64,000 bases of DNA, taken from Isurus oxyrinchus. Its lineage: Eukaryota. The notes below the pieces were generated by a model. The model did no database searches. It was not told where the DNA came from and worked only from the letters and a program-made list of their open reading frames with translations. Below, one piece after another: positions 3,953-52,349 of this stretch; position 1 is the first letter of the stretch; each line of letters opens with the position of its first letter. Location of the stretch: positions 220,658,001 to 220,722,000 of the forward strand of contig JANJGN010000002.1 in the NCBI GenBank assembly GCA_026770705.1, written 5' to 3'. Made by a program: the position numbers and the translations under genes.

Positions 3953-4751
3953 GAGATCATAAGACATAGGAGCAGAAATTAGGCCATTCGGCCAATTGAG
4001 TCTGCTCCGCCATTCAATCATGGCTGATAAATTTCTCAACCCTATTCTCCCGCCTTCTCCCCATAACCTTTGATCCCCTTACCTATCAAGAACCTATCTA
4101 TCTCGGTCTTGAATACACTCAATGACCTAGCCTCCACAGCCTTCTGTGGCATTGAATTCCATAGATTCACCATCTCTGGCTAAAGAAGTTTCTCCTCATC
4201 TCTGTTCTAAAAGTTCTTCCCTTTACCCTGAGGCTGTGACCTCAGGTCCTAGTCTCTCCTACTAATGGAAACATCTTCCCCATGTCCACTCTATCCAGGC
4301 CTTTCAGTATTCTGTAAGTTTCAATCAGATCCCCCCTTATCCTTCTAAACTCCATCGAGTATAGACCCAGAGTTCTCAAATGTTCCTCATATGTAAGCCT
4401 TTCATTCCTGGGATCGTTCTCGTGAACCTCCTCTGGACCCTCACCAGGGCCAGAACATCCTTCCTGAGAAGGGGCCCAAAATTGCTTACAATATTCTAAA
4501 TGTGGTCTGACCAGAGCCTTATTAAGACTCAGCAGCACATCCCTGCTTTTATATTCTAGTCCTCTCAAAATAAATGCCAATATTGCACTTTCCTTCCTAA
4601 CTACCAACTCAACCTTCAAGTTAAGCTTAAGAGAATCCTGGATTAGGACTCCCAAGTCCCTTGGCACTCCAGATTTCTGAATTCTCTCCCCATTTAGAAA
4701 ATAGTCTACACCACTATTCTTCCTCCCAAAGTGCATGACCTCACACTTCCC
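3953..4751 (-). mobile_element. CR1 LINE 3' fragment
   Basis: ORF 4242-4820: KCEVMHFG, RDLGV, LVRPHLEYC, RGDLIETYRIL. Confidence 0.92.
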
Positions 4752-5124
4752 GAGTTTAGACCTCCCCTGCCCTAGACTCACTCCTAAGTGCGAGATTTCT
4801 GTGAGATATCTCTGGGCCATTTCCTGCTGACTTCCTGTGCCAGGTGGGAACTCAGCTGGTGGGCTCTAAATGAAGCTGCTGAGTTAGAATAGGTCAGGCC
4901 ACATTTCTGTGACAGAGGATGGAGTTCACATTCACTTTGCTACCCACCCTCCCCTAAGCTGTTAAAATTGGAGTCACTATTTCCCCCTCCAATCACTCTA
5001 GTTTATGCTAGCACTCATTTCTCACGCCTTCACTTCGGTTTGACAATTTTCTCCAAGCTCCATCTCAACTCCAGCTGATAATTTTCATCCAAATCCATTG
5101 AGGCCATCTGCAACAAGGGAGAGT

Positions 5125-8880: not shown

Positions 8881-9129
8881 CATGTTGTTGCTCTATTTCA
8901 GGTCAACAAAGGGCAGGCAAAAATCCACACTGCCGGGATCAGTTTGATTTTCTGCTATCCTTCTGTATTTTCTGAAGTATATATATATAGATCTTTGCAG
9001 CACAATTCATGATTAGCTTACCTCTGCACTTTGGACAATTCAATAAACCTTCTTGTAGTGTTTAACTATCAGGTTTGATGCATCTGTTGAGTGCACAGCA
9101 TTTATCAGCAAACAAATGGAATATATCAA

Positions 9130-9345
9130 ACCTCGTGCCTTTTTTGAGTTACCAAGAAGCTTGGGGAGCATGTCCCAGCTGCTTTCTCCATGGCTAGTTG
9201 ATTTACCAACCAATCAGCACCCTTTTCTCATGTAGTCTGAATTATTCTGGTCGTTTGAAATTCGGCATTCTTGCGTTTGTCCTGATGAGTGCAAGACGAA
9301 AAGCTTCAGCAACACATCTCTCTTTTCAGCAATATTCTAAATGCT
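9130..9345 (+). mobile_element. Penelope-like element terminal repeat (family B)
   Basis: Homologous to 33720-34030, which follows a Penelope RT/GIY-YIG ORF remnant. Confidence 0.75.
9269..9312 (+). ncRNA. Type I minimal hammerhead ribozyme motif
   Basis: ttgtc-CTGATGA-gt gcaag ac-GAAA-agct-TC-agcaa: intact CUGAUGA/GAAA core, short stem II, palindromic stem III, NUH site UUC. Confidence 0.75.
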
Positions 9346-14210: not shown

Positions 14211-14912
14211 ACAGTATCTGAAAGTCACAAAAGTGCAAGGAACAAATTTCTCCCGAGACCTTGGTTTCCTTTTGCTAATCCACACATTGGGGCTATGTTT
14301 ATCAACTTTCCATGATTATCCTGAAGCCTCAAAGAATTAAGGTTTAACTTCCCGGATGCTGCTGTGATCAAGCTTTATTACTGATAACTATGCAGGAGAT
14401 TGTAGGAAAGTGGTGTTTGACTAGATACGTTGGTTGGAGGCTGTGGGGTGATCTGATGAAACCTCCAGGAATGTATTCAAGGACTAGAGTTGCGAACTCT
14501 TGGGGTTGGAGCAGAAATTCTTCTTGGATGGTAGCAAAAGTGGTGTTAGGGCTTAGGCCACCTGTTAAGAGGCCTGCTTGATATTCAATTTCACTGAAGT
14601 GAATAGAGCTGAATATTGGGTAGGGCATTAAACAGCGTAATGCAATACCACCTGTTCTATGCCATGGCCCACAACAAATTTCTACGCCAATATTTTGTGC
14701 TGGTGATATGACCATATGGCAACATGTAAGTGTAATGATTTGCTGCAAGGGAAGCTGCTAAACATTACTGACAACACATTCTCATTTGCTGGCTCAATGC
14801 CGTTGACAATAAATTAGTATGCAAAAAGGCAGAAAATATCATGTTTGATAGCTAGATGTCTCCCTTGGATGGAGAATTCACTCAGCAGCAAGCGAGAAGT
14901 GTCTTTGAATAA

Positions 14913-15123
14913 AAACAAAATGTGCTGGAAAAACTCAGCAGGTCTGGCAGCATCTGTGGAGGGAGAAACAGAGTTAACGTTTTGAGTCCGTCAGTCATGC
15001 GGACTTGAAATGTTAACTCCGTTTCTCTCTCCACAGATGCTGCCAGACCTGCTGAGTTTTTCCAGCACTTATTGTTTTTATTTCAGATTTCCAGCATCTG
15101 CAGTATTTTGCTTTCATCTCAGG
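14913..15123. mobile_element. Short fold-back Penelope-like insertion (family A)
   Basis: ~80-bp inverted arms; 12-bp TSD gtctttgaataa (14901-14912 and 15124-15135). Confidence 0.85.
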
Positions 15124-16530: not shown

Positions 16531-17190
16531 AAGTAAAAACAGAAGCAGAAATACCTGGGGAAAAACTCAGCAGGTCCAGCAGCATTGGCGGAGGAGAGCA
16601 CAGTTGACGTTTCGAGTCCACATGACCCTTCAACAGAACTAAGTAAAAATAGGAAAGGGGTGAAATATAAGCTGGTTTAAGGGGGGCTGGGGGTGGGGGG
16701 TTGTTGGGACAAGCAGCCAGTAATAGGTGGTGATAACCAAAAGATGCCACAGACAAAAGAACAAAGAGGTGTTGAAGGTGGTGATATTATCTAAAGGAAT
16801 ATGCTAATTAAGAGTAGAAGGCAGGACAGACAAGGTACAGATAGCTCTAGTGGGGGTGGGGGAATACTAAAAGGTAGAGATAAACAATGGGTGGAAATAC
16901 ATTTACAAATAATGGAAATAGGTAGGAAAAGAAAACTCTATGTAAATTATTGGACAAAACAAAAAGGAGGGGGAAGAAACAGAAAGGGGTGGGGATGGAG
17001 GAGAGAGTTCAAGATCTAAAGTTGTTGAACACAATATTCAGTCCGGAAGGCTGTAAAGTGCCTAGTCAGAAGATGAGGTGTTGTTCCTCCAGTTTGCGTT
17101 GAGCTTCACTGGAACAATGCAGCAAGCCAAGGACAGACATGTGGGCAAGAGAGCAGGGTGGAGTGTTGAAATGGCAAGTGACAGGAAGGT
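16531..17190 (-). mobile_element. Penelope-like retroelement 3' fragment (family A)
   Basis: Minus strand encodes HMSVLGLLHCSSEAQRKLEEQHLIF*LGTLQPSGLN (GIY-YIG C-terminus), followed by the terminal repeat. Confidence 0.85.
16602..16640 (-). ncRNA. Type I minimal hammerhead ribozyme motif (CUGUUGA variant)
   Basis: Minus strand AGTT-CTGTTGA-A-GGGTC atgtg GACTC-GAAAC-GTC-AACT: stems I and II pair, GUC site, palindromic ACGT stem III. Confidence 0.7.
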
Positions 17191-17978: not shown

Positions 17979-18260
17979 ATAAAGGCAAAAAACTGCAGAT
18001 GCTGGAAATCCAAAACAAAAATAAAAATAAAAATACCTGGAAAAACTCAGCAGGTCTGACAGCATCTGCGGAGAGGAACACAGTTAACGTTTCGAGTCCG
18101 TATGACTCTACAACAGAACTAAGGAAAAATAGAAGAGAGGTGAAATATAAGCTGGTTTAAGGAGGGGTGGGACAAGTAAAGCTAGATAGAGGGCCAGCGA
18201 TAGGTGGAGGTTGCCAAAAGATGTCATAGACAAAAGGACAAAGAGGTGTTGACAGTGGTC
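17979..18260 (-). mobile_element. Penelope-like terminal fragment (family A) inserted in the Tigger transposase
   Basis: Same sequence as 16531-16780; target acaaatgtaaa duplicated at 17968, 18262 and 18280; hammerhead-like motif at 18082-18120. Confidence 0.85.
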
Positions 18261-19189
18261 AACAAATGTAAATTGTTACACAAATGTAAATTGGCTGTAA
18301 TCGGGAACAGCAAATGTCCCAGGTGCTTCAAGGGCATTCAGACATTATCTGTTCACTACTATGCCAATAAGAGAGGCTGGGTAACCAGGGACATGTTTTC
18401 TGATTGGTTTCATAACCACTTCCTGCTAGAGGCATTGCCAGGTAGCTGGACTTGAAGAAAACTGTAAAATCGTGTTGCTGCTGGAGAATTGGTCAGCACA
18501 TCCCCCAGCTGAACTATTGGTGAAGAACAATGTTTTTGCTGTTTACTCCACCCTCCCCCCACACCCCCATACACCCCCCTCCACACCTCCATACCCTGCC
18601 CCCCCACCCCCCCTACCCCCCCAACGTAATGGCATGAATTCAGCTTATGGACCAAGGCATTCTTCGGTCCATGAAATGGAATCCTTCTTGAATAGTTTCC
18701 TTGGTGCTGTGAACAGAGGCCTGGGGGTGGAAGGCTTCCACAAGAGTTTACAGTTAAGGATACCATCTACGCATCTGCTAATGCCAGTGCCTTGCTGATA
18801 AAGACACATTGACCAAGGGCTGGCACAACCTTTGGCCTGCAACAATGTTCATTGAAGACTTTGAAGGTTTTAATGTGACCAAGGAAAAAACCTGGCAAAC
18901 CAGTTCCTTGAGTATGCAAAAGGTATATCAATGGAATGTGTGAATACGCTGGAGGCGGAGGATATTGAGGAAGTGGTTAACATTGATAACAACTCTCCTG
19001 TCATGCATTCTTTGACTGATGGGGAGATTGCAGAAGTGGTGTTAAGTCAAGATCAGCTTGCTAAAAACAGTGATGATGAGGATGACATAGTGAATACAGT
19101 AGAGGAAGTGTCCATAGATAATATTATTAAGATGTGTGATGGGTTGAAAGGATTTTTGATGACAAGAGTCATTTTAACACACCCCTGGT

Positions 19190-19480
19190 CATCTTCACAT
19201 ATCTTACCCTCCATAAACTTGATGTCATGCAAATCTCTGCTGCCCACATCCTTATTCGCAACAAATCTTACTCAGTTACCGCCCCTGTGCTCACTGACCT
19301 ACATTAGCTCCTGGGTAAGCAAGCTTCAATTTTAAATTTCTCATCCTTTTATTCAAATCCCTCCATGACCTTGCCCTTCCCTATATCCGTAAATTCCTTC
19401 AACCTCATAACCCTCTAAGATATCTGCCCTCATCTAATTCTGGCCTCTTGAGAATCCCCAATTTAATCGCTCTGCCTTTG
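19190..19480 (+). mobile_element. L2-like LINE fragment
   Basis: caaatctctgctgccc...cccctgtgctcactgacctaca, shared with 28400-28500. Confidence 0.65.
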
Positions 19481-19606: not shown

Positions 19607-21311
19607 TGTAATAAAAGCTAAAATTAAGGTTCAGCAGCCCCTTTTTGCAATAATCCCAGATTAGCCGTACCTTTCTGATCATTCCTCTCAATTTTAGTTT
19701 GAGAAAGACATATACTAAAGATGCTAAATGGGTCTGAAAGGCTGACCTATCTCTCCCCCAAAAGAATGGAGTCCGCTGAGAGTATTACCATCCTCCAGAC
19801 AGTCTGTTTGACAAGTTACACACAGATTATATTTTCTTGGATATTATTAGTGCCTGGTAACAGTCTTCACTCCCCACCCACCTAAGAGTTGAGTTCATAA
19901 CTTAGCGGTACAGAAGACTATTTAAGTCAATATAAATTCTAAAATATACGTGTTTATTAAAGAACTGAACATACAATCCACAGTGAGGTGAAAACAGGCA
20001 AATGCAATGTTAAAGTTTTAGAAAAAGAGAGCAATACAATCTTACTTTATTAGAGAATCCAGTTTTTAAATTCAATTATTGTTACAGTAAATATTTTAAG
20101 TAATAAATCAATTGATCTTTAAAGTAGCATTTACCTTAATCCCAGAGGAAAGACTACAAAGTCAGCAAAATGATTTTGTCCCAATTAAGGATAGAATTAT
20201 TCCCAATTAAGGAGAGAATTATTATCAGTTTCCCCAGTAATGGGACTTTTACTTTGAGAGATACTCAAGTGACTTAAGCTTATTGAAAAATTCAATGTGT
20301 TCTCTGAATAAGTGTTTCTTGGGGGCTGCATGACTCATTTCTTAAATAAAGGGCTGATTTTAATTGTAATTAAAATCTCCTTTATGTTCCAAATATGGTT
20401 TGGATCATCATTAATTTCTAAGTATACTGGCACTCTTTGATTTCTAAGAAAGAAACTGCTAATTTCTAAGTCAGGCCTGGGCCTCATTGATTCTAGGGAA
20501 GCCAAGCTGCAAGGACCTGTGATGGCCAATTTTTCATTAACCACGTGCCTGTGTTTTAAGATTATAATGTAGTTCTTGGGTTGGGCTAGGATTCTAAAAA
20601 TTCCATTTGTCTTTGGTCTAGGTCTAGGATTATCAGCATAAACTCATTTTATCAAATACTAACTATGGTGGCCTTCCTGAGAGTTTGCAAATAAATTTGT
20701 TATTCTGGACTTTGGTTGTGTAGCTCTTTTAATCAGTGATTCCCTTATTGCTGTAAGGAGAAGCAAATCCTTTAATGAAGAGGCGCATAGCTATGGAGTG
20801 TGAACTGTATTTAGTCTTTTAAAAAAAATCCTTTTTAATTCTTCAAGCTTTCATAGCTCTTTTCACCTTATAAGCCCACATTTGACGGGATTTCGTTACA
20901 CAAATTTCTTTTTAGTGTAGCTGTCAGTGCACTCAGGATTGTTCAGTAAGTGTTGCCCAATCGCAGAATCACATATAACAGTTGATGCTTTGTTTTGGGT
21001 TTTGCAATTGCAGACTAGTTGACTATGCCTGTATTCTGTCTATTACAAATAGTCAAAGGAACTTGCTGTTTGATTTAACTAACCAGTCATGGGTGGGGGG
21101 GTGGGGGCAGCGGGGGTGGTGTATGGCCTCCATACCTGGCATCATCCAGCCTGTGTTTGCAAAACCCAACACAAAACGTCAATACTAACAACCAATTTAA
21201 GATAATCAGTCAAGCTCATGATGTGGCTCATTTACACCTGCTAGAAGGGACATACATTCATACACAAGAACCTGTTCTCCGCAAACAAAAGGAATATGTT
21301 CATACCTTACA
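19607..21311 (-). mobile_element. Possible long solo LTR (ERV-like)
   Basis: TGTAA...TTACA inverted termini and a minus-strand AATAAA near 19955; no TSD and no second copy in the window. Confidence 0.3.
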
Positions 21312-21525
21312 TCTTTTTTGAATAGCCTGGAAACTGGGGGAGCCTATAGCTCCCCATTACTTTCTCCATGGCCAACATTTCAGCCAACAAATCAATCAGC
21401 ACCCTTTTCTCCTGTAGTGTAAATTGCTGTGCAAGTTTGAACTTTGGCATTCTTGCATTTGTCCTGATGAGCGCAAGACAAAAAGCTTCGGCAATATGTC
21501 GCTCTTTTCAGCAATATTCAAATCT
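21312..21525 (+). mobile_element. Penelope-like terminal repeat (family B) with hammerhead motif 21451-21494
   Basis: Near-identical to 9130-9345; ttgtc-CTGATGA-gcgcaagac-aAAA-agct-TC-ggcaa. Confidence 0.75.
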
Positions 21526-21547
21526 ATGTCACTAATTGACTGATAGT

Positions 21548-23030
21548 GTAGAACTTCAAAAGGATATAGACAGGTTGGTGGAATGGGCAGACAAGTGACA
21601 GATGGAATTTAATGCAGAGAAGTGTGAAATGATTTATTTTGGTAGGAGAGAGAATGTAAAAGAAAGGGTGCAATTCTAAAGAGGGTGCAGGAGCAGAGGG
21701 AACTGGGTGTATATGCACATAAATCATTGAAGACAGCAGAACAGGTTCAGAGCACGGTTAATAAAACATACAGCATCCTAGGCTTTGTTAATAAGGGTCT
21801 AAGAATATAAGTGCAAGGAAATTATGTACAGAACACTGGTTAGCCTCAACTGGAACATTGTATCCAGTTCTGGGTGACACACTATAAGAGATATTAACGC
21901 ATTAGAAAGAGTGCATAAAAAAAATCACAAGAATGGTCCAGTGATGAGGAACTGCAGTTACGTAGAAACATTGGAGAAGTTGGGATTGTTTTCCTTGAAG
22001 GAGAGATGGTTGAGAGGAGTTTAGATGCAGGTATTCAAAATCACGAGGGGCCTGGACAGAGTAGATAGAGAAAACATGCTCCCATTGGTGGAAGGATCGA
22101 GAAAAAGCGGGTACAGGTTTAAGGTAATTGGCAAAAGAAGCAATGGAGACATTGGGTAGGATTTTTGGGTCGTCAGGTGCAGTTGGGGGTGGCCCGGGAG
22201 TGGCGGGGAAACAGTCCGCTGCCCGCAATCGGCCCACGACTGCAATTTCCTGCTGGCTGGCCAATTAACGACCAGCCAGCATGAAAGGCTCAGTGCTGCC
22301 AGGGTCAGAGAGGGAGGAGTGCCAGCACAAAAGTCTGCACATGCGCGGGGATGCTCACACTGAAGGCTCCCTGAAGGCAGGGAGCTAAACAATTTTAAAA
22401 TCAAAAGTAAGGATCTATCAAATCTGAAAAAAATGTCCCGACATGACACTAACTCTCAATAACATGAACGAAATAAAAATTCCACCCAAAAATTTATATT
22501 TATTTTTTAACTTAATTGTGGAAACCTCATCCCGCCTGTGGATGAGGTTTGCCAAAAAAAAAAACGAAAAGCCGGCTGGTTGATTTGCCCATCCATCCGC
22601 CAACTGTAAGGTTGGACGGGCAGCGAAAAATATATTTAAATTAATTGATGAAGGGCCTTAAAAGGCCTTTTAATTGTCAGACTCTGGCGCGCACCCGCCG
22701 ACTGAAATAATGCGCGAGTGCACGATGACGTCGGGACGCTCGCCTGACATCATCGTGCACTATTTTATGCTCGATCGGGTTGGGCGCGCGCCCACCTGCG
22801 AGATGTAAAATCCTGCCCATGAGGATTAGAACCCAGAATGCTCTGTCTAAGAAGGTGGTGGAGGCAGGTTCAACTGAGGCAAGAAAATGGAGTTTTATTT
22901 GAAAAAGAAGAATGTGCAGGTCAATGGTTAAAAAGGTGGGGGGGCAAGTGATACATAGTAAATTGCTTCTACAGGGGGCTGGGAAAGACACTTGGGCTGA
23001 AAGACCTTCATCTGTGCTATAACGATTCTG
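21548..23030 (+). mobile_element. CR1 LINE 3' fragment split by a MITE
   Basis: [32 protein letters not shown] motifs; resumes at 22819. Confidence 0.88.
22154..22818 (+). mobile_element. Harbinger-derived MITE
   Basis: TIRs gggtaggatttt / aaaatcctgccc; imperfect 3-bp TSD ATT/ATG; 3' part matches 53810-54090. Confidence 0.85.
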
Positions 23031-30400: not shown

Positions 30401-33400
30401 GTCATGATTACATTAAAAAAAAACAGGGCTTATCTTACAACAGTGCACAAGATGGAGCAGGAATATACTTTCTGCCCAGTTTTGAATTTTATGCAAATAT
30501 ATACTTTGTGGTTGTCTTTTGGAATTGTGGCTGTTGGACAGGTTATTTTCAATTAGTTTGTTTTAAGGCTAACATTTAAGCTGCTGGTAATGCCAGACTT
30601 CCCATGATTATAAGACACTTGTTAGACCTCAGCTGGAGTATTGTGTACAGTTCTGGGCACAACACCAAATGAATGATGTGAACACATTGGAGAAAGTGCA
30701 GAAGAGGTTTACAAGAATGGTTCCAGGGATGAGAAACTTCAATAACGAAGATAGATTGGAAAGATTGGGACTGTTCTCCTTGGAGAGAAGGCGGCTAAGA
30801 GGAGATTTGATAAAGATGTTCAAAATCATGAGGGGGCTGGACAGAGTAGATAGGGAGAAGCTGTTCCCACTCGTAAAAGGATCAAGAACGAGAGAGTGCA
30901 GATGTAAAGTGATTTTCAAAACAAGCAAATGTGACATGAGAAAGAACTTTTTCACACAAGTGGCTCGGGTCTGGAATGCACTGCCTGGAAGTGTGGTGGA
31001 GGCAGGTTCAATCGAGGCATTCAAGAGGGCTATGGATGATTATTTGAATAGAAACAATGTGCAGGGGTATGGGGAAAAGGCAGGGCAATGGCACTAGGTC
31101 ACAATGCTCATTTGGAGAGCTGGTGCAGACACGATGGGCAGAATGATTCTGTGCCTCTCTTTTTTAAAGCCATTGGTTCATAAAGAGAAACCTGCTCTAA
31201 TATAAGAAAGAAAATAGTGCCTTTCACAGCCTCGGATTGTGCCACACATTTCACAGCCAATGAAGTAATTTAGAAGTGTAAAAGCAAAATACTGTGGATG
31301 CTGGAAATCTGAAATAAAAACAGAAAATGCTGGAAGAACTCAGCAGGTTCCGACAGCATCTGTGGAGAGAGAGACAGAGCCAATGCTTTCGAGTCTGTAT
31401 AACTCTTCTTCAGTACTCTGATAAAAATAGCCCCACAAAAAATGAGATGACACCGTGGCATCACATCCATTGTATAAATTTAACTTTTATAAATGCTAGC
31501 TTTCAGAAAGAAGTAACAGAATGAAATAATATGTAAAATAAGGAATCGTCTGTTGCACTGCCTTGTGGAATGGAATTGTTTGCTCCATAACTCCAACTAA
31601 ACATTGACATGCTGTGGTTATAAAAATCTGTCTTCCATTAAATTAACAAGATCCTAATGAAATAATCCAAGAGATTGATTTAGGATGACAGCAGTTTTAA
31701 TCACAACAGAATTTCCGAATGACAGTACACGCTCCCTGCTTCTAGTCCATTTACAGTGTAATCTTTTAATGATGCATGTAGTTAATCACATCGGAATTGC
31801 ACAAATTATAGGAATTAGAGGCTGGATTCAAGTGGTGGGACAAATTACCTATGAGAAATAATCTTTTTTTTATTCCTACCTGCATATCTTTATATAATAG
31901 AGCTGCAGTGACCCATCAAATATTAGCATGAATTTTTCTGACATTTGGTCCTTGTAACATGACCCAAAATGCCTTACTCCCAGGTGCAGGAGATCACGCA
32001 AGCAAAAAACTAGAGATATGGATGTCTGGGTCATGCCATTGTTGCTATGGTCTCCCACTAAGGCACAGACTTTGCCTTCTGCTTTTTGTCAAAATAGCAC
32101 CAATGGACCTTTCACAATTATCAGAGGAGTTGGATGGGATCTCAGTTTAAGGCCTAACCCTATGGACAGCATCTCTGACTCCCTCAGTGCTGCTCTCAAG
32201 TATTAATCAAGATTGTATCGACATGCTCAGGGAATGGGATTTGAAACCGCAGCTTTCTGATTCAGAGATGAGAGTGTGCGCTCTGAGCCACGGCTGATAC
32301 ACCAAAGCATCCTCCACTGGGTTATGTAGTCAGTATTAAATGGGAGAAATGTAGAGATTACATCATCATTTGGGTTTATCCTTAGTGAGGTTAGCAGAAA
32401 AGCATCAAATAAATGGATCATCAAGGAGATCAAGACAACTGCTAGGGAAACAAGGTCATGTGCCATTGTCTGGCAGCAACAAGCCTGATTCTGTATATGG
32501 TTAAAAATATGACAGCTCCATTTATAATGTTTGGATGGATTATTGAAAAGTAATCTCATATAGCAATTCAAAATGCTCAACTTCCTTCTCAGGTTTTAAT
32601 CTATTGTAGAGAGATCACTCTATGTATAACTTTTATAAATGCTAACTTTCAGAAAGAAGTAACAAACTGAAATAATCTGTAAAATAAGGAATCGTCTGTT
32701 GCACTGCCTTGTGGAATGGAATTGTTTGCTCCATAACTCCAACTAAACATTGACATGCTGTGGTTATAAAAATCTATCTTCCATTAAATTAACAAGATCC
32801 TAATGAAATAATCCAAGAGATTGATTTAGGATGACAGCTTTGTATAAAACAGGTAAACAATTCACCTTTGAAATGGAGCAGTCAAATGAGCTCCCCTTCC
32901 TCGGCGTGTTAGCTGAGAAATCTGCCTGTGGGTTCTCTCCTCCTGTCTACTGCAAGCCTACCTTCACTGGTCAATACACACATTGGGATTCTATGCGCTA
33001 GAGGATTGGCCTTGTCGGCAGCCTTGTAAATGGTGCCCCGAGTCATTTGCTCATTGTGCAAGCTTGATGCTGAAATAGGGCGCATCAAAGCCATCCTGCA
33101 GGATAATGGCTACCCCGATCGCATCATTGTTCGCTATATATCGCACAAACTTATGAATGGGCCTAAGGCTGCCACCTTCGGACCTGAGAAGTGCCCAGAC
33201 TATCTCAGATTACCCTGGAAGAGTAAGTTGTCACAAAAATTTGAGCAATGGGTGAAGCTAGCCGTTTCACGTTGCTACTATGTAGTGGCAACACGATTGG
33301 CATATTCTACTAACAGGATGCTGTCGTCAAGCCTAAAAGACATTCTGCGTATCACACAAATGAGTAATGTGCTGGTGTGATGCCAGGTTTTAGGTCATAT

Positions 33401-36400
33401 GTCTCAACGACTGGTGGATCACACAGCACATCCCTTCAGCTGTTCACAACAGGCAAAGCACAGACAGTACCCAATCTGCCCGTGCTTGCAAAACTGAAAA
33501 TAAGATGTCCAGCTTTGGATATGATTCCACAATTGGATAACACTAGTTGAACAATGCTGATTGTGCTAAAAATTACACTAACAACCAATTTAATATTATC
33601 AGTCAGGCTTGCAGTGTGGGTCACTTATACATGTTAGAAGCTACATATATTCACAAACAGGGTCCTGTTCTTTGCAGACAGAAGGAGCACGTCCACACAT
33701 TGTGCCTTTTTCAACTAAAACCAAGCTTGGGGGACAGCCATTCCCTGGTTCATTCCTCATGGCATTGCCTTGGCCAATCAGAGTCAACCTGCCTGGTTTG
33801 AATTTAAACAAAATCTGGGCAGTTAACTGTTCCATTGTGCATTCTCAATGGCAACGCCTCTACCAATCAGAATCCACTTGCCAATCAATCAGCATTCCCT
33901 TCTCATGCAGTATAAATTGTTGTTCCCTTTACAATTGATATTCTTGCAAATATGTCCTGACAAGTGCAAGATAAAAAACTTTGAGAGCATGTCCCTTTTC
34001 TCAGCCATACTCAAGTTCTGTACTACCAAATGACAATAGGTAATAAAAACATTTCGTACATTGACCTTCAAATAAGCAAAAACAACAACACCTTGTATTA
34101 TAGAGTGCTTTTAACATGCCCCACGACACTTCACAGGAGTGTTATCAAACAAACTTTGACACCGAGCCAGATAAGCAGATTATCAAAAGCTTGGTTGAAC
34201 GGTAGGTAAGGAAGTTTAAGGAAGTTCTTTGAGGAGGAGCGGGAGCGATAGAGGCAAAGGAATTCCAGAGCTTCAGCCCAAGATAGATGAAGGCACAGCT
34301 GCCATTGGCAGAGCGATTAAAATCGGGGATGCTCAAGAGACCAGGTTTGGAGAAGTGCAGAATTGGCGGGATGCAGGGTTGGAGGAAATCACAGCAAAAG
34401 GGGAGGGTGAGGAATTTGAAAACAAGGATGAGAATTTTTAAATTGCTACATTGTTCAGCCAGGAGCCAATGAAATTGAGCAAGCACGGGGGTGATAGATA
34501 TGAATTGGTGTGAGTTCGAATACAGACAGCAGAGTTTTGGATGAGCTTAAGTTTAGGGGGGGTGGGAGATGGGATTTGACAATGAGTGTGTTGGAATGAT
34601 CAAGTCTAGTGGTAACAAAAGCATGGATGTGGGTTTCGTGGTAGATGAGTTGAAGCAGGGGTAGAGTTGGGTGATGTTTTGGAGTTGGAAGTAGGCGGTC
34701 TTAGTGATGACATGGATATATGGTCAAGAGGTTGTGAACTGTCTGGTTCAGTTTCAGGCAGTTGCCAGGGGCAGCGAAGGATTGATGGGTGTGGAATGGA
34801 CCGAAGACAATGGTTTCAAAGGCAGCATGCTGCACTGATTAATACTTACAATTAGAAAGCAGGCACCCAGCATAACCGCTTTAATCTTAATATCTAGATC
34901 CATGGGGAACTGGATCCCAAAGTTATCCGCATCTGTGAAAGCTTCTCTCACAAATCCAGTCCACTGCTTTGTGATTTTGCCAACTGTTTCAGTTTCATCA
35001 AGGTTTGTAACCTGTAACAAGATAATAAATCCTGTAAATCTACTGGAGTTGGCATTTGGCATGTGACTGACCCCTTACATGGGCATTAGCTGTAGATTTT
35101 CCAAGTCCTAAATAGGAACTAGGAAATGACAGCAGGAATAGGCCATATGACCCCCCTGCTCTGCCACTCAATAAGATCATGGATGATCTTCTATCTATGC
35201 TAAATCTAGTTGAGTTGTGGGCTGGAATCTTCCGTTCTGGAATTTAAGTTCGGTGGCGTGGAAGTGGGAGTGATTTCTGCTTGGGGGCGGGATAGCTGAC
35301 CCACAGCAATCTTACGCTGTTCAGCTCATTAAATATGCATCCACCAGGAGCTCACTGATTCATGTGGCTGGGGCAGGCAGGAAACCACTGTCCCCACCAT
35401 TACCTCACAGGCTTGAAGGTTTGGGCGCCATATTTAAAAGGGTAACCGGACAGCCTGCACTATCCTGGTCTGGCTGTGCCGAGCCACTGGTCCGCCCTTC
35501 CCCACTAACCCTTCCTCCCTTCCTTGGCCATCTTCCATGCACCTTGGATTGCCACCCCCTCAGTCTCAAGCACAGGCTGGCATTTACAGACGCTCCCCAA
35601 AGAGGACAATGTAGCCTGCAACTCACCATTAATCATGAAGCCAAGATCACCAGGGACACGTCACTTATGTGCAATCGTAAAAGTGAATTCTCATTTCTCG
35701 TTGGCAGGGAACTTGATTTAAGGGGGGAAATTTAATTCTGGCAAGGTGGCCTTTTGATGTGCGTGCACGACATTCAAAAGGGGTTCCTAACATCGTTTGG
35801 CAGGAAGCTCCACTCACCTTTAACCCACTTTTAAAGCCCCAAGAGCTTAATTCCTAAAATTCATCCTGCCATTGGGAAACTGATTTTTATCCTCGAGCCA
35901 GGTGAAGTTCCCCCACCCACCAAGCTGGTGCTGGTGGGACCCAAAGATTCCAACCTTGTCACTATCACCGAAATCCACTCCCACTAATACCCCTTCCATT
36001 TAACCCAGATTCATTTTCTAAAACTATGTCCAAAAACAGACTGCAACAGGTGGAAGCCCAGGTAAGTCATTTAAAAGTACTTAAAAAAATAATTAAAAGG
36101 TTCCCTATGGGCCAGGTGGAGCAGGGCTACCCATATCTCCGCAAAACTGGATTACAACCTGCAAGCAGATCAGGAAACTGAAAAATGCATTCGGTTAAAA
36201 GGTAAAGTACCTTGAAGTCAATATCGCTGCAACAGTTGCAGACACAACAAGGGCCGATAATCTTCAAAACAGGCTCTTTCTTCTCGTTTTGAATGGTGAA
36301 TTTTGGCAGACATAGATCCCATGTTTGGATGACATATCCGACTGGCTGACCAGGTGGAGCCATCACTTCCATCTGTGAAGAAAATGTAGAATAGGAAATA

Positions 36401-39400
36401 CATAAACTCACACAATGGTCATTACGAACAACATGCAGCACCAGAGGAATTCTTTGATCAAAGTGAAGGGACTAGGGAAAGGACATTGATAGGGCTAGTC
36501 TAAAACAGCTAGTTTCAGCTTTGAGTGATATAACCTTATCTTTTTACCTATGAACAACAGAAGAGGAGAGGGGGGGAAGAGAGAAAGTGAGAGAGTGAGA
36601 GAAAGAGAGTGTGAGTTAGAGAGAATGATTTAAAAGTGAGAGAGACAGAAATAGACTGAGACAGAAGAACAGTGAGAGTTATAGCGAGAGAGAGAAACAA
36701 AGAGAGAAGGAGTGAGAGAGAGAGAAACAAAGAGAGAAGGAGAGAGAGAGAGAGAGAGAGAAACAAAGAAAGAAAGACAGAGAGACAAAGATAGAGAGAT
36801 ACACACAAAGCCAGGGAGACACATAGAACCAGAGAGAAACATAGCAAGAGAGAGAGAAAGAGAGGTGGAGCAAGGCAGAGAGAGAGAGGTAGACAGAGGG
36901 TGGAATTTAATACCAACTCCGTGGTTGGTTCGATGTTGGAGGGGGGGCGTTTAATGAGGTTGGATGGAGGTGCCTTCCTGCCTCCACCCTAATTAAGCCA
37001 ATGGTGGGAAGGCTATGGGCTTAGGGTTTAGCCTGGTTGAATAGATAGGCTTTGAGAAGAGTGAAACTGGGGCGGGGGGGGTGACACATAAGTGGGGTAA
37101 AGGATTTATGGATAAGTTGCAGAGGGAGAGACTAATGGCGGTTTAAAGCTTTGCTGCCAGCAATGGAAAAAAAAGAGAAACAAATGTGAATGAGACAGAA
37201 ACAGACACAGTTTCAAGAAAAGAAGACTTTTTATTTTAATTTTGTCTAGGAGCAACACCGTGTGAGATTAACTGGCTTGAAGATATTTGGCGATCTTACA
37301 AACTACCTCACATGTCACTAACCTCCTGCAAACAGCATGGACAGCAGCAGCCAGCACACCTCAGGGGCCGGTACAAGCTCATTACTTCTTGCCCCAAGTT
37401 GTCAATAATCTTCATGTCAAAGGAACGCATGTTCCCACAGCAATTCCGATTACAGAAGTCATTTTCTTCAGCAGCAAAGTAGACCAGTTGGCCAACGCTG
37501 TTCTTAATTTGATACTTGTTGTTGGTCTCAAATCCAGTTAAGACTAAAGCAAACAGAATGATGAAAATGTTGGTAAATTAGAGAAAAATATGCTGACTTC
37601 AAAGTATACTATCGTGCCAATGATAAAGATATAAGATGAGGAACAGAGGGCAAAACACAACCCAGGACAAAGCAAGCGAGAGGACAAGATGTCTCAAGTC
37701 ATGTTATGGTGACACCATTTCAACAGCTTGGAGATTTGAGCAAGATGAATGAAAGAGGGAAAGAGTTCATGATTCATCACTCTGTTATTAGGATGATTGC
37801 TGGGAAGAGATACTGCAGTTATGAGGAGAGACTTGAGATACCACAACCACTTCCACTAGAGCAGAAAGAGGAGCCACAAGGAGACTCTCAGTCAAGGTTT
37901 TTAAAATTAGGAAGGGTTTTTACAGGGTGGATAGGGAAAGACCTATTCCCCTGGCTGCAGAGTCAATGACCCAAGGTTGTTAATTTAAATATTGTGACTT
38001 TCACGTAAAGTTGCGAGAAATTTCTCTATGCATGGATTTGTTAAAGCATTAAAAGCTGAGCTGCAGGGACTAGCTGAGGAAGAGACCATTGAAGGGACAA
38101 GTAGATTTCAAGACTGTGGTGTTGCAGGGCATGATTTCAAAATTTGCAGATTATCTGAAGATTGGAAATGTTGTCAATTGTGATGGGGATAGTCTTGAAC
38201 TTCAAAAGGACATAGACATGTTGGTGGATTGGGCAGACAAGTGGCAGATGAAGTTCAATGTAGAGAACTGTGAGATGATTCATTTTGGCAGGGAAGATAT
38301 GGTGAGACAATACAAAATAAAAGCCTCTAAAGGAGATGCAGGAACAGAGGAACCTCAGTGCATATGTACATAGGCCATTGAAGATGGCAGGGCATGTTGA
38401 GAGACCAGTGAATAAAGCATGTAGTATCTTAGGCTTTATTAATAGGGGCATTGAGTACAAGAGCAAGGAGGTCATGTTGAATTTGTATAAGACACTAGTT
38501 AGGCTTCATCTGGAGAGGTTGGGACTGTTTTCCTTGGAGAAAAGGAGACTTGATAGAGGTATCCAAGTTCCTGAGGGGTACAGACAGGGTAAATAGTGAG
38601 AAACTGTTCCTACTGAAGATAACATCAAGAACTAGAGGGCAAAGATTCAAAATAATTGGCAAAAGGAGTAAATGTGATGTGAGGAAAAGTTTTTTCACCC
38701 AGAGAGTGGTTGGAGTCTGGAACAAACTTTCTGAAAAGGTGTGGGAGGCAGGTTTGAATGAGGTATTCAAAAGGGAATTAGATTGTTGTATGAAAAGAGA
38801 GAATGTGCAAGGTTACAGGGATAAGGCAGGGGAGTGGGATTAGATGGAAAGCTCTTTCAGAGAGCCAGTGCAGACTCGATGAGCTGAATGGCCTCCTTCT
38901 GCACTGTAAAGATTCTGTGAGACTGTAAAGATTGGCAAGAGGGGAATAATCTTATGAAGGGAAAGCAGGTCAGCAGGATTAGTTTTGGATAGCTCTAGAA
39001 AAGCACTGGAACAGACACAGTGAACCAACTGCTCTCATCTGATGCTGTAAACGTCAGTGTTTATGGAGCTCCTGTCTAAACACAGGATTAATAATTTAGA
39101 AGCAGCACTGGCATAAACAAAGTAGAATAAATGTTCCCAAGAGTGAAAAGGATATCCACAATGTATGGATTACATAGCAGTCTTCTGAAGGGATAACAAA
39201 GCCCAGGCACTAATGGGGAGCAGCCTAGAGTTATGAACCCTACCTCCTTATAGGGATTCAGCCTGAAAAGAAGTTTACTCGTTGGTGAGATTGTTTTCTG
39301 CTACTCCAAGTTTGCAACTATGCGTTCTGCCTTACACATTTGAAAGACAAACCCTGTCTAAGTATTAGAAATGGAAGCACTGCCCCATATATTCGAAGTA

Positions 39401-42400
39401 CAAACTTTATCCATTGTTTAGAATTAAACTGCCACATGCCAGAAATGCAAGATGCCTCTTACATGTTAGAACTGATAGTACTGCTGCACGTAAAAACTAG
39501 ATCAAGCACTGGAGCACACAGAAAGCTGATTTTACACAAACACTTGTCACATGTGGAAAAAAAACAAGACATTGAGGTTTATTGATCAGTGTAAATACTT
39601 TTTATAAATGTACTTTTTATAAATATACTTTTTATAAATGTACTTCTTATAAATGTACTTAAAATGTGGCACAGGTCTTGCCGTTCTAACATACAAGACA
39701 ACACTTGAAGTTGTATTGCATGATCTCATCCATAAGTCAAACAGGAATTGGAGCTGGGCAAATAAGAAAAGAAAATCGGGCAGGGTGTGAAGTAGATTTA
39801 CTCTCACCCAAAGCTGATTACACCCCCCCGCCCCGTGTTTCATCCCTACAGCAACTTACCTTCCAACAGCTCCACCTGCTGGTGAACTAGGAGCTGGTCG
39901 ATCTGTGACAGAAACAGAACATTTCATTTTCTTTACTTAAACAAATGAAAGGAAATTTCATGAAAAAGAATGATCATTCATTTTAATCGCAACAACCTCA
40001 AATGGTAATTTTGGCCATTTGGAGCACTGACATTCGAACATCCCTATATATACATGCAATATATTATAATTATAATGACTTCCATTTACAGGTAATCGCT
40101 TAATATGCCTGCATTAAAATTGTGGACAAAGTGAGTGTTCAGCTGTTAATCTCACAAACAGTAATTTTTAGGCTATATTTATTCTAAACTGAAAACCTAG
40201 CTTATGGATAAAACTAAGGCTTTCAAAAATACTGTAAAGAATACAGTCAACCGTGACTTGCATTTATATAACATCTTTAATATTGTAAATAGACCCAAGA
40301 TTGTACCACATTTGGGCCTCTGCTATAATGTAAGTGTTAAACCAATGAGAGCAGCACTGTTCACTGTGTGGGCTTTTCTGCTGAGGGTCCACATCATTCA
40401 TTCCTTTAAGTTGCTTTTCCCGGATTTCCACAGCCCTCCTGCCAAAGTATCAGGAGGATTGCCATCGAAATTGCCTTTAACTGCAAACTCTAACTGAGTC
40501 ATCACTGACAGGCACCAATGGACACCACCTTGGCATAACTGGTATTGTGGTCTGTAAATTTGCATGGCCTACATAATTTAGATCAGATTCTATGCCTCAT
40601 TTCATTTCTAGCAGTGCAGTGAATGACACCTGATGAGCTCTGGTCTTTTGCTTGTTCAGCTGGATGTCTGATATGCGAAGAAACCTAACAAGGTGCTAAA
40701 GTGCCCTTAGGTGACTAAGAAATCAATTTATTTAGACTTGCTTAAAGGCTAAAAACTGCGGATGCTGGAAATCCAAAACAAAAACAAAAATACTTGGAAA
40801 AATTCAGCAGGTCTGACAGCATCTGTGGAGAGGAACACAGTTAACGTTTCGAGTCCGTAGACTTGCTGTTTACCTGACAAGTAGCATGCATTGCTTCCCT
40901 ATAGGAAGACCATGCAGTTAACCAATTACAGAGAGCCATAAGTAAAGATTTGCACAGGGTCTCCAAATATGTGTAATGGCGATGCTGGAGTTTAACTTTA
41001 ATCTATGTGGTGACCACACATCTAACTTACATGGGGTCTGGAGGGTGGAACAAATGTATCAGCATCCTTCTGTGGTGTTTGTGCAGTGCAGTGTGTCAGT
41101 TCTTCAGTTCCAACTGTCCTATAGCCTTATTTTCCCTCCCTGAACCTCTCCTCTCCTCTACCTCTCTTTCCTCCTTTAAGACTCACTTTAAAATCTACCC
41201 TATTTCTTCTGTTCTTATTTGAAGTAGAAGTTCAGCCATGATTGTACAGAATGGTGAAGTAGACATGAAGTGCCAAATGGGCTACTGTTACTGCTACACC
41301 TACTGCTACTTATATTACTGCTCCTATTTCTTATGTTCTTACCTCTTTGTGCAAGCTTTTGGCCACCTGTCCCAATATCTCCTCAAATGGCTTTGTGTTA
41401 AATTTGCGTGATAATGCCCCTCCGAAGCATCTTGGAACTTGTTATGGTGCTAAAGGTGCTCTTAAATGCAAGTCACTAGTGTTATTATTCTTTACAGTCT
41501 AGTTTGAAAGCCTTAGTTTTCCATAGGCTAGATTTCAGCTTAGAATAACTATAGGCTGGAAATAATTGTTTGCGATATTAGCAGACAAACACTCAGGGAG
41601 CTTGTGGAACATCCTTCTGTCTACAATTTTAACGCGGACTTTAAGTTGCTCATTTCAAGTAGGTTACCCTCTGCACTGCAACAATGGACAAAGTAACATC
41701 AGAGAAAGGCATCACAGGAAACTGAATTGTTGCATTTTGGCACAAGAAACAATGTGAGTATATCCTAATTGGCAGGGTTTAATTTGAAGGAGAGCAAGAA
41801 AGATAAGTCCAAGGCGCCTGATACAAAACTTTCTAAAAGTGAGAGGAGTACAGTTTTAAAACATCATAAGATGGCGAATGAGATTTGGCATTTTATTTAG
41901 GCTTCAGTTGAAATGTCGTGTGCAATTTTGAGCAGTGCATTATAGAAAGGGTATTGGAAAAAGAGTACAGTGGTGAGTTACCTGACTGATGGAAGGGATG
42001 AGAGACTACAGCTATGAAGGATTGACAGGGTAGGGCCTTTTTCATTGGAACAAAGAACGCCAGGAGGAAATGTCTCATGCAGGGTTCAAAATTATGGGAG
42101 AGTTAATTTGAAACGTCATTACCACAGACTGGAAAATCCATAATGTGGGGACATAGCCTACATGGTTTAAAGGTTTATTTATCTAAAAATCAGCTTCCAT
42201 TGTGGCCAAGGGCTGAATTGAGGTAAGTTTTGCAATTAAAAAAATAGAAAGAACAGAGTAGAATAATATACTGATCATTAATTTAGGCTCTTTATGTTAC
42301 CAGGGTACAAAGTTTAAACGTTTGATCATTTGCGTGGATGAGATATGGCATTTCTTAAATTTTGTGATTTTACATCTTAATTCAGTTAGGTGTTTTGAGG

Positions 42401-45400
42401 CTTGTAGCTGATAGCCAATATGAGATCTGTCTGGGTAACATGTTGTGAAGCTTGGAGTTCAGCCGTGGTCTCACAAAAGAATGCCAATGTTGACTGCATC
42501 TGTTTTTGAGTGTCTCTAGACTGCATTTGAGTAAATCACCAGAATAACAATACTAATTAAGGATAAAAACAGAAAATGCTGGAAAAACCCAGTTGGTCTG
42601 GCAGCATCTGTGGAGAGAGAAACAGAGTTAATGTTTTGAGTCCATACAGATAACCGATATGTTATAATAAATATGTTAATACATTTATGTAAATATCATA
42701 TGATAAATATGATAAATAGTCCATATATATATATAATATATACATATATATCAGATGGGGGATTGTAAGGAAGAGAAAATTCTGGCCAGTTGTGAAGACC
42801 CACATGAGCAGGGAATAACAGAACTTAGTAAGGTCTTTGATAATACTCCAATTGTGGTTATGACACAGAGCAGAGTAATAATTAATAACAAACAGTAAGC
42901 AATGATACAAGTCAGCAACTATAACAATACATTTTCTTCTGCCTCAGCCACCCTCCAAGGGAGGAACCCTTTAGATTTATTTTATAAACCAAAAAGCCCC
43001 ACTGCCTCAGAGGTGGTAAGAGCCAATGCTCCACATTCTCAGGGCCCAGTGCCATCAAGGATGTCCAAGTGAGTTAATGGAATTTACTTAATTAGACTCT
43101 ATGGCACTTTGTTAAACCAATGCCAAAAACATCTGCTGAATATTCAGTCATAAGATACACACAAGAGCTGACCAAATAACATCGACACTTCAGTCAAATC
43201 TTACAGATGAACTCCCATTCTTCATATGTGCTGCTGCTAACTGAGCAAAAGTTCCTACTTGTTCAACAATACACACTTTGTTTAAAAGGATATCATCAAA
43301 CTTTTCATTTACCTGTGCAAGATACTCCAGTCCTGGTGGGCAATTTGGGATACCACTTGGTAATGGCATCAACTGAAGAGCTCCTTTTTGTCCTGGAGGA
43401 ACTTGATTGCCATAGGCTCCAGGTGGATGGAGAACAGGAGGCTGTGCACCAGGAGGATAGGCACCAGGATGATAGGCACCAGGAGGGTAGGCACCCGGAG
43501 GGTAGGCACCCGGAGGGTAGGCACCAGCAGGATAGGCACCAGCAGGATAGGCACCAGGAGGATAGGCACCATACGGATAGAGATCAGGTGAGAAGGCAAC
43601 AAAAGGTTGGGTCCCAGGCGGATGGGCACCGGGGGGCTGGGTTCCAGGCGGCTGTGTCTCAGAAGGCTGAGGATCAGTTTCTAAAAATATAACATTTAAA
43701 AACAAGCAATATATATGAATGTCTTTAGAAATCAAATCTTTGCACGTCTAATGGAACCATCTATTGACCAAAAAAATACAGTCTTACTAATCCAGCAAAC
43801 ACTCCATTTGCATTAATACTTCTTTGAAGAATCATATTTGGCCTGCAGCACCTCCTCCTCTCTCCACAGATGCTGCCAGACCTGAGTATTTCCAACACTC
43901 TCTGCCTTTATTTCTCTCTTGTCTACTTTAGTCACTTAAAAAGGCAATGGAACAATAAAAAAAAAGTGACGTGTATGTTTTAGGAATTTTAACATTGAAG
44001 GATTTATTTTGGCAGGAAGCAAAGCCAAGGGAGCGTGGGAAGAGGGGAGTTCCAGCATAAGAGTAACTTGAAATGAAAATGTATTAATATTAAGTCTAGC
44101 AAATGCTGTGTGACTTCTACTTCTACTGTGCAAGCCAGCAGATGATGCTGTTTCTTTCAGATGGTCAAGAAGTCTAACCAGATCACCACAATGTAAGGAA
44201 TTCTGACCCCACATTGTAATGCTGACACAATTCCCAGAGCTGGCAGGATCCAGGCATAAGCAGATTCATTTTTATTTCCCTGTTGGGTTCTTCTGGACTC
44301 ATACAGGTGTTACAGAGAGTCCAGCAGAGTTCTGGAGGAAAGTTGGGTTACTGTATTAGACGCATATACAAGAGCCAAGTCAGCATCCCCACTTTATCTT
44401 TTAGGAAGCTGCCTATCTCTCTTCCTCATTGCCCCAGTGCTTTTTTCATTATGAAGTTGCTACATTTACAGGTGATATTAAACTACTATGGGGCAAGGGA
44501 ATCATAGGAGGCTGCAAGGAATTACAGACTGAGTTTCACAAAATATTAAGAGTGCACAACAAATTTAATGCAGACAATTATAAAATGTCACACATAAGAG
44601 GGAAAAATGGACCACACACTACTCCATGAATGATGCTGGAATAGCCTAGGATGAAGTTGAATGAGAGCTAGGAGTCTTAGTAAACCCGATGCTTTAGTAA
44701 ACCAATACAGAGCAATAGTCACCAAAGAACATAAGAAATAGGAGCTGGCTTTCCTCTTGCCCTGATCCCTAGGAACAATTGTAAATGCCCAGATGAAGAT
44801 TTCATTGTAATTAAGAATAGGTGCTTCTCAGTCAGTTGATAGACCACAAGGTACACTCCCGTGGGCATGGGTTCAATCTCCATGTGACACGATAATCTCC
44901 ATAACCTATTGGTAGATTTCTTCCTTTATAACCATACTACAAAGCAGGAGGAAAATGAATATTTTTGGAATGGAGCGTATCTCTGAATGTAAACAATGCT
45001 TTCCTTGCATTCCGATGACTACAGCTTCTACCGAAGCTGACAGACCTATTTCACTTAATAGTTGGAAAACAGATTGTCACAGGTATTGAGGTTGAAATTT
45101 ATTTGAGCGCATTTCCTGCAACACAACAGTGACTTCAGAAGTACTTAGTTAATTATAAAGTACTTTGAAACTTTCTGGAGTCACAGAAGACGCTATAGAA
45201 ATTTGTCTTTCCTTCTTTCAAACAGGTTCGTGCAGGCTGCAAGCAGGTTAACTGGGAGACCTGAAATTGGGCCCAGTATCTCATTTCAGTCAGTGAGGCA
45301 AGCCGCCAGGAACTGTTGCACCTCATCCATCCCAGCGCACTGGCTTGCTTCAGGTTTCCTTGGGGTGCAGGGTGTAGCTCTGCTCAATTGGGTCACATCA

Positions 45401-49445: not shown

Positions 49446-49449
49446 TTTA

Positions 49450-49925
49450 GGTTTACAGGAATGTTGCCAGGGTTAGAAAAGAGTAGCTACGAGGAGAGAT
49501 TGGATAGGTCGGGGTTATTTTCCTTGGACCAAAGAAGGCTGAGAGGAGACTTGATTGAGGTGTACAAAATTATGAGGGGAATAGATAGAGTGAACAGGAT
49601 AAAATTGTTTCCCTTGGTGAAGAATTCTAGAACCAGGGGACATAGATTCAAGATAAGTGGCAGAAGGTGTAGGGGGGACATGAGGAAGAACTTTTTTACG
49701 CAGAGGGTAGTGGGTGTCTGGAATTTGCTGCCCACGTTGGTGATAGAGGCAGAAACTTTAAATGCTTTTAAAAAGTACCTGGATCTGCACCTTAAGTGCT
49801 GTAAGCTGCAGGGCTATGGGCCGGGTGCAGGAAGGTGGGATTAGAAAGGGCACCTGGGTGTCCTCGGACTGGCATGGACAAGATGGGCCGAATGGCCTCT
49901 ACTGTGCTGTAACTTTTCTGTGGTT
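49450..49925 (+). mobile_element. CR1 LINE 3' fragment
   Basis: ORF 49461-49844: [31 protein letters not shown]. Confidence 0.92.
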
Positions 49926-50147
49926 CGATGACTGGATTTTGCCCTCCATTAGGTGGGTGTGGTGGGCGGGCCTGGGAGCAGCCAATTAAGGGCCACCCAG
50001 CATGAAGCCCGGCTCGTCACTAGCCCGGAAGAGCCGAGCGGGGGGCAGGGGCCTGTTGGCCGCCAGGTCCAATGGCGGACGGTATAAAAGTGGCCAGGCA
50101 GCCCCAGAAAAGCTGCCAGGGAAGGACCTCTGGCTGCCTCTCTGAAG

Positions 50148-52190: not shown

Positions 52191-52349
52191 ATTGTCAAAA
52201 TGATATAAATCTTGTTTTTGTTGTCATGGCCTGAGAATGCTTCACCTTTTTATTTTATTTATGCAGGGTACACCAGTATGTAATGCTGGACGTACGTGGC
52301 TCTGAGCTTTATTGCACAGGTAGTCAGTGTTCTCTGTGTTCAAATGAAA

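Follow-up and report, generated by a model that had tools for sequence, protein, structure and literature searches.

A pseudoknot that probably braces a putative dimer-type hammerhead ribozyme at the end of a Penelope-like element of Isurus oxyrinchus

Introduction

Does the hammerhead ribozyme at the end of a Penelope-like element (PLE) of Isurus oxyrinchus form a genuine pairing between its leader and loop II, and would such a pairing help the ribozyme to cut or hold it back? The question is raised by a window of 64,000 nucleotides, the whole stretch of DNA analysed here, in which a PLE end contains a hammerhead core preceded by a short strand complementary to its loop. In the available passages of two reviews, PLE hammerheads are described as minimal, without tertiary contacts and of unknown role (PMC6155905, PMC7761336).

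The hammerhead motif of copy 1

A full type I hammerhead core, with CUGANGA, GAAA and UH in that order, is confirmed from the sequence at 9282-9307 (+), bearing out an earlier note that had placed one in a Penelope terminus, and self-cleavage is predicted. Exact 26-nt cores occur 967 times in the genome (4.98 Gb) against 0 for the reversed pattern, and the leader is also kept in 410 of the 967 core-perfect copies. In the copy at issue (copy 1), where all parts lie on the + strand, the leader UCUUGC (9269..9274) would form the 5' strand of a pseudoknot; it is followed by G9275, as in all lineages, and a 7-nt spacer, stem I included, separates it from the catalytic core CUGAUGA (C3-A9, 9282..9288). 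The 5' strand of stem I (9277..9281) covaries with the 3' strand (9308..9312) in subfamilies and relatives. A single G10.1-C11.1 pair (9289..9297) closes the 7-nt loop UGCAAGA (9290-9296) in the layout of Rfam RF03152, and the loop holds the pseudoknot 3' strand GCAAGA (9291..9296), complementary to UCUUGC at 9269-9274. The remaining segment (9298..9307) consists of GAAA (9298-9301), the palindrome AAGCUU (9301-9306) and UC (9306-9307), with the predicted cut at 9307/9308. The reading of this palindrome as a dimer-type stem III in a type I hammerhead is supported, with an AAUU swap in the relative L257, whilst the stem II that had been drawn as GU(GCAAG)AC does not hold: the 6-bp pairing takes up A9296, and stem II is therefore one G-C pair and not GU/AC.

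The first stem I pair of copy 1 is a C.A mismatch (9281/9308), unlike in the other subfamilies and the relatives, where it is intact. At the 9308 position A is the commonest base in the copy 1 subfamily (19 among the copies listed), the rest being G-containing CpG forms, and the mismatch is likely to reflect CpG decay of G1.1. Since the first stem I pair is mismatched, the TATA box is decayed, and both an AUG and an upstream ORF are missing, copy 1 is probably a worn, dead hammerhead, an inactive fossil that is by itself unimportant.

The host element and its layout

Copy 1 (9101..9345, +) is the end of a 5'-truncated PLE, comprising the last endonuclease codons and the pseudo-LTR, as identified by blastn to the longer copies L074 and L104. 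It belongs to a repeat family (D8) with three copies in the window, all with both pairing strands intact. Copy 2 (20902..21523, +) joins an inverted piece (20902-21093) to a direct end (21184-21523), and its motif (+), with the leader at 21451-21456 and the core from 21464, has lost G12 (G12 to A). Copy 3 (32859..34047, +) retains a broken RT end, the thumb, a GIY-YIG endonuclease (to about 33712) and the pseudo-LTR, with the leader at 33942-33947 and, from 33957, a decayed core (+) carrying the changes G8 to A, C11.1 to U and G12 to A.

The host is an EN+ PLE with a single predicted ORF for an RT and, at the C terminus, a GIY-YIG endonuclease, its own copies being broken. Copies lack their 5' part, an inverted piece often accompanies them, and copy 2 and many other loci have a short tail; 5' truncation with an inverted piece is the layout described for EN+ PLEs in the consulted part of PMC8557442. 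The same passages give the Penelope/Poseidon clade a CCHH motif and no CX2-5CxxC linker (PMC8557442). Visual inspection of the endonuclease studied here shows a CxC-spaced pair of Cys together with two His and no linker Cys, and assignment to the Neptune clade was dropped as no linker cysteines were seen. The relative L154 has an 846-aa RT and GIY-YIG frame that starts at the ribozyme (RVT_1 E 1e-8; GIY-YIG E 0.004, below the cut-off), and L113, a locus of the own genome, matches RVT_1 with an E of 9e-7. An intact own ORF was found in none of the 150 loci scored among 32,304 endonuclease-search candidates, the longest frame being 347 aa, and the lack of a long intact frame in any of them marks the family as old.

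Upstream of the motif, the pseudo-LTR of copy 1 has a CCAAT box (9210..9217, +), also found upstream of the TATA box in the relatives L122 and L261, a decayed TATA box (9236..9242, +; two changes from the family TATAAAT) that lies 33 nt before the pairing strand, and an initiator-like A at 9267 (+). The names CCAAT, TATA and Inr are our own assignments by likeness to familiar promoter motifs, and the promoter role is presumed. Of 102 own TATAAA matches, 81 precede the leader by 32-33 nt, and 34 of the 36 in relatives do so by 32 nt; from spacing only, transcription is predicted to start at A9267, about 2 nt before the pairing strand.

Downstream of the cut, the first codons of the element ORF (9314..9337, +) encode a peptide shared with relatives; in copy 1 the AUG position reads ACA, and the element copy ends here. 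This peptide, A-I-F/L-K-F-C-T-T, is common to all lineages; it opens the 846-aa frame of L154 and, in L131, one of 190 codons. In the own subfamilies the distance from the predicted cut to the AUG downstream is 3 or 6 nt, and of the 81 copies that are in frame 48 have ATG; among 22 sequences of relatives the AUG lies 3 nt after the cut in 17, 4 nt after in 1, across it in 1 and 12 nt before it in 2 (L154 being one), and is absent in 1. The ORF start is therefore confined to -12 to +6 nt of the predicted cut. In copy 1 and its family, an uncleaved transcript that begins at the predicted start would first meet an AUG within the core itself (9285-9287), in a frame other than that of the element ORF; at this core position the L122 family lacks an AUG.

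Decay of the motif within the genome

Retention of the pairing in all three window copies had been offered as a sign that it matters. The strands are indeed intact, but both survive in 13 of 66 copies from endonuclease searches, which gives about 4% for two further copies, and as evidence of selection the retention is weak and shows descent only. The loss of the cores has a mutational reason, since C11.1-G12 is a CpG that seldom survives (intact in 7 of the 66 copies). Divergence at non-CpG positions was 8.6% in the strands against 11.0% in the flanks (p=0.08; 57 copies from endonuclease searches), and among 130 loop substitutions in these 57 copies the partner was changed in 14 and compensated in 5, about what chance gives for 14 doubles. 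The samples of genomic copies, 191 unique and anchored at no more than 7 core mismatches, are biased to recognisable copies, and a random sample of 200 kb contained just 2 copies, a number too small to use.

Genome-wide searches for variants gave a similar picture. Changed palindromes had 11 matches against 24 in the control, which indicates decay only; 18 double loop variants included none with a compensated leader; and a further search for compensated variants returned 21 matches against 64 in the control. Genomic copies of the motif, by these counts, decay neutrally, with cores lost mainly at a CpG, and no variant family was found among them. Between the majority sequences of the six own subfamilies, in which spacer and stem I vary, none of the 11 non-CpG positions in the strands changes, whereas only 13 of the 29 columns in the flanks stay constant (p about 0.001, for subfamilies defined by the motif and columns that are not independent).

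Covariation of the pairing in relatives

Matched base changes in relatives from other DNA confirm that the leader/loop II pairing is real. An alignment of 40 homologous proteins retrieved the best 80 of 396 metagenome loci, nearly all from one family, and 4 further loci in two genome bins; over the endonuclease region the relatives share 43-61% protein identity with the own elements. The strands are UCUUGC/GCAAGA in the own genome, UCUGAC/GUCAGA in the L122 family and L194 (and, with one U.G, in L202), and UGACGC/GCGUCA in L260, with its near-identical repeats, and in L257, one contig each. These are the only three independent strand types, separated by 2 and 3 double changes.

Ten representatives were picked by hand, 5 own and 5 non-self; every cell of the pseudoknot (100%) is paired in them, and double-sided changes occur in 4 of its 6 pairs and in 4 of the 4 pairs of stem I. 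The covariation score of 0.70 compares with 0.24 after shuffling (0/500), a test inflated by relatedness, and with no more than 0.15 once the register is slid. Of random window positions, 0.1% offer a 6/6 complement in the four registers used, the per-locus chance is 0.001-0.004, and the strand-to-core spacing stays at 7-10 nt in all lineages. The UCUUGC/GCAAGA pairing proposed from the window is therefore supported by changes on both sides of 4 of its 6 pairs. The covariance that the earlier note had asked for appears between lineages, in the three strand types, but not among copies within the genome, where compensation is lacking. Its suggestion that the pairing is specific to this family is refuted by relatives with the same pseudoknot layout at 43-61% protein identity, and is also contradicted by published pseudoknots with a stem II of 1-2 bp, as described in the passages available (PMC3088659, PMC11300833).

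The boundaries of the helix are also visible in the relatives. G10.1-C11.1 is G-C in 9 of the 10 representatives and G-U in 1, and A15.1 and U16.1 are invariant. L260 has A.A at the second stem II position, where the last loop A faces an invariant leader U; with A.A next to G10.1-C11.1, stem II is one pair and the helix 6 bp, and a 2-bp stem II was rejected as the essential form. In every lineage a U precedes the leader strand opposite C11.1, and the pseudoknot helix would accordingly stop at the core boundary. The palindrome centre is AGCU in three lineages and AAUU (AAAUUU) in L257. Catalytic nucleotides are kept across all three lineages; L194 (1298-1340) has a compensated U3-A8 in the core, and most copies of the L122 family have U3.G8 instead of C3-G8, which may slow cleavage.

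Several PLE remnants (L202-L205, L257, L260-L264) lie inside contigs of two bacterial genome bins, where they are probably contamination by host DNA. One such contig contains three near-identical inverted PLE units.

Comparison with known hammerheads

The closest structural counterpart is the PK or RAGATH-1 hammerhead (RF03152; Zhan et al. 2024, PMC11300833), which, in the passages available, shares with the motif a type I core, a one-pair stem II with a 7-nt loop, a 6-bp pseudoknot in place of helix II and a G adjoining the helix end. In the solved structure the 6-bp pseudoknot sits atop G10.1-C11.1, coaxial with helix III, and is supported by helix IV and a triplex linker (PMC11300833). The motif differs from that form, as there described, in that the helix IV hairpin and the AUA4 triplex linker are absent and the strand joins stem I via 2-6 nt, all six pairs are Watson-Crick, stem III is a palindrome only, and the host is an animal retroelement. 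From strand to C3 there are only 7-10 nt, of which 4-5 belong to stem I, and no room for helix IV is apparent.

An Rfam scan of the whole window called no hammerhead and gave 9 unrelated weak matches. A narrow scan produced a sub-threshold alignment to RF03152 (12.8 bits, E 6.9, cut-off 56.3) spanning model positions 25-77 only; like the motif of copy 1, the model has one pair closing a loop of 7 nt. Filing the motif as RAGATH-1 was rejected, given a score under the Rfam cut-off, no helix IV and a stem III that is a palindrome only.

Pseudoknots with a short stem II are also described in the consulted passages of Perreault et al. 2011 (PMC3088659), where hammerheads of types I-III are stabilised in this way, stem II may have one or two pairs, pseudoknots are found in about 40% of hammerheads, breaking them cut activity by about 20- to >100-fold, and compensatory mutation rescued activity in a hammerhead with a one-pair stem II. 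A repetitive type I class with a weak palindromic stem III was excluded from part of that analysis; these passages hold no PLE example, and a search of the supplement for the motif was empty (PMC3088659).

On the PLE side, the minimal hammerheads of Cervera and De la Pena 2014 resemble the motif, in the parts of the article available, in their pseudo-LTR setting, type I topology, short stem I, rudimentary palindromic stem III and dimer model (PMC4209133). In contrast, their helix II has 3-8 bp in all 56 listed motifs against one pair here, and 10.1 is usually preceded by an additional base and tertiary contacts are lacking, where the present motif has no extra base and a pseudoknot (PMC4209133). 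The Anolis carolinensis Poseidon element PAc (Frangieh et al. 2024, PMC11167929) is similar, by the passages available, in that its hammerhead overlaps the ORF start and a short tail follows the repeat; it differs in having ordinary stems I and II and a cut 26 nt after the start codon, against an ORF start at -12 to +6 nt of the cut here.

Both halves of the design are thus known, the pseudoknot with a short stem II and the dimer-type palindromic stem III of PLEs. Palindromic short-stem-III variants of PLE hammerheads, for which Lunse, Weinberg and Breaker in 2017 reportedly found dimer cleavage, resemble the motif, by their description, in PLE association and in the stem itself. Their union with a pseudoknot in one PLE hammerhead appears to be new: it was not found in print in the passages covered, which include PMC6765202 and PMC10085705, the 2017 study being the likeliest place and lying outside that coverage. 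A word search of a 2026 preprint on PLEs and retrozymes gave no mention of a pseudoknot, and in the supplement of Craig 2021 no core-plus-palindrome motif stood among the matches listed for a few words.

Similar motifs were also sought in viral contigs, where the bare-core matches listed comprise 80 loci (73 unique), with a 6/6 complement in 1 of the 73. Eight of those listed fold as full type I hammerheads with contacts of 3-5 bp, and 3 of 9 viral motifs scanned match RF03152, 2 of them above the cut-off. No protein related to the PLE was found on the viral contigs, and the two exact-palindrome matches there both lack stem I. Three viral contigs (L303, L311 and L297) have a hammerhead-like motif with a 7-nt loop and a partner strand that precedes the core by 4-8 nt; helix IV seems to be lacking, and RF03152 is not matched. 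The pairing in L303 has 7 Watson-Crick pairs, and a clear stem I was not found there.

Proposed mechanism and alternatives

The pairing is probably an activating pseudoknot, which would pre-fold a dimer-dependent hammerhead that sets the element RNA's 5' end. The 6-bp helix between leader and loop II would replace stem II and brace the active fold, stacking, by analogy with the solved PK hammerhead, on the single G10.1-C11.1 pair. All of it belongs to the catalytic half, which would allow it to fold before the rest. The next step would be for AAGCUU to join two copies, supplied either by the pseudo-LTRs at the 5' and 3' ends of a single transcript or by separate RNAs; the palindromic stem III, predicted to form only in such a dimer, has a computed self-duplex energy of -4.3 kcal/mol, and the paired copies would cut after UH. 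With transcription predicted to begin 2 nt ahead of the leader and the ORF at -12 to +6 nt of the cut, cleavage would take away about 40 nt of capped leader, or else the start codon, wherever an AUG is present, leaving a defined 5'-OH end on the element RNA. In lineages with the AUG after the cut, an alternative outcome may be cleavage-induced cap-independent translation, as reported for RNA viruses in the available part of PMC13725137.

The same helix could instead restrain the ribozyme, the leader capturing loop II and zipping into the core so that a monomer stays inactive until a second copy or the element protein opens it. In the hairpin that ViennaRNA predicts for copy 1, G.U pairs over A6-G10.1 prolong the helix into the core, at an energy about 3 kcal/mol lower than with the core open; this extension is the chief argument for inhibition, and the barley yellow dwarf satellite hammerhead may be a precedent, going by the title of a reference. 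The gain from this extension is 3.1 kcal/mol in the window copy and 4.1 in L245, but it is not conserved (1.0 in L246, 0.0 in L260), L122 and L194 misfold in other ways, and the program cannot draw pseudoknots. Covariation, moreover, is confined to the 6 pairs, which respect G10.1-C11.1, and without the helix a stem II of 1-2 bp would have nothing to hold it; on these grounds an activating brace is favoured over an inhibitory switch, which we think quite improbable. A pairing without any function, inherited by accident from one master element, would account for genomic copies that have neither excess conservation nor compensation, and three strand types are a small sample. Such an accident is nevertheless very hard to credit when two divergent lineages show double-sided changes of 2 and 3 pairs without a shift of register, at a per-locus chance of 0.001-0.004 and with a spacing to the core that stays within 7-10 nt.

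The fold may also have been selected mainly for recognition by the element protein, in RNP assembly or at the start of reverse transcription; cutting would then be slow, aided by protein or unnecessary. In the one PLE assayed in vitro, that of Anolis, the hammerhead cut only when protein was present, insertion in vitro was independent of the cut, and no RNA-seq ends fell at the cut site, according to the sections available (PMC11167929); minimal PLE hammerheads are likewise characterised as poor cutters (PMC4209133), and U3.G8 predominates in the L122 family. Against this stand the catalytic nucleotides kept in three lineages, the compensated U3-A8 of L194 and a stem I that covaries right at the cut, as expected of a cutting ribozyme, and we consider this explanation unlikely.

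If the activating pseudoknot is correct, a clade in which it covaries would represent a PLE ribozyme designed to act fast but made conditional on dimerisation. Among natural forms of the PK fold it would be the smallest, it would explain why such motifs escape stem-based searches, and the clade would offer a clean test of the role of PLE ribozymes, with six breakable pairs to be compared in monomer and dimer. A tentative further possibility, which we rate as rather doubtful, is that this stripped-down PK hammerhead without helix IV acts as a sensor of full length, firing at the ORF start upon pairing with the far pseudo-LTR. The catalytic half would fold as the first 40 nt of the capped transcript, and a single cut would then decap the mRNA or destroy the start codon and free a unit-length, circularisable template, switching the element RNA from message to substrate.

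Other features of the window

A second, unrelated family of repeat ends (D6/D12) is found at 14900-15114, 16532-16691, 18012-18171, 40743-40859, 42554-42644 and 58611-58770, with a fold-back pair at 14908-15082; three of its copies resemble a hammerhead on the minus strand, where stem II is long and the core is altered to CUGUUG or CUGUCG. A frame at 43190-43747 (-), with PPGAY repeats (a 15-nt tandem, D2) followed by CPPGLEYL, resembles what we take to be a phospholipid scramblase exon. Decayed frames at 18430-19335, 50088-53693 and 60091-60480 presumably derive from pogo/Tigger and Harbinger-type transposases and Myb/SANT proteins, which they resemble, and many segments (4242-4865, 21542-22200, 30591-31097, 38188-38843, 49415-49844, 56459-56730 and 62345-62873) are, we assume, 3' fragments of CR1-type LINEs.
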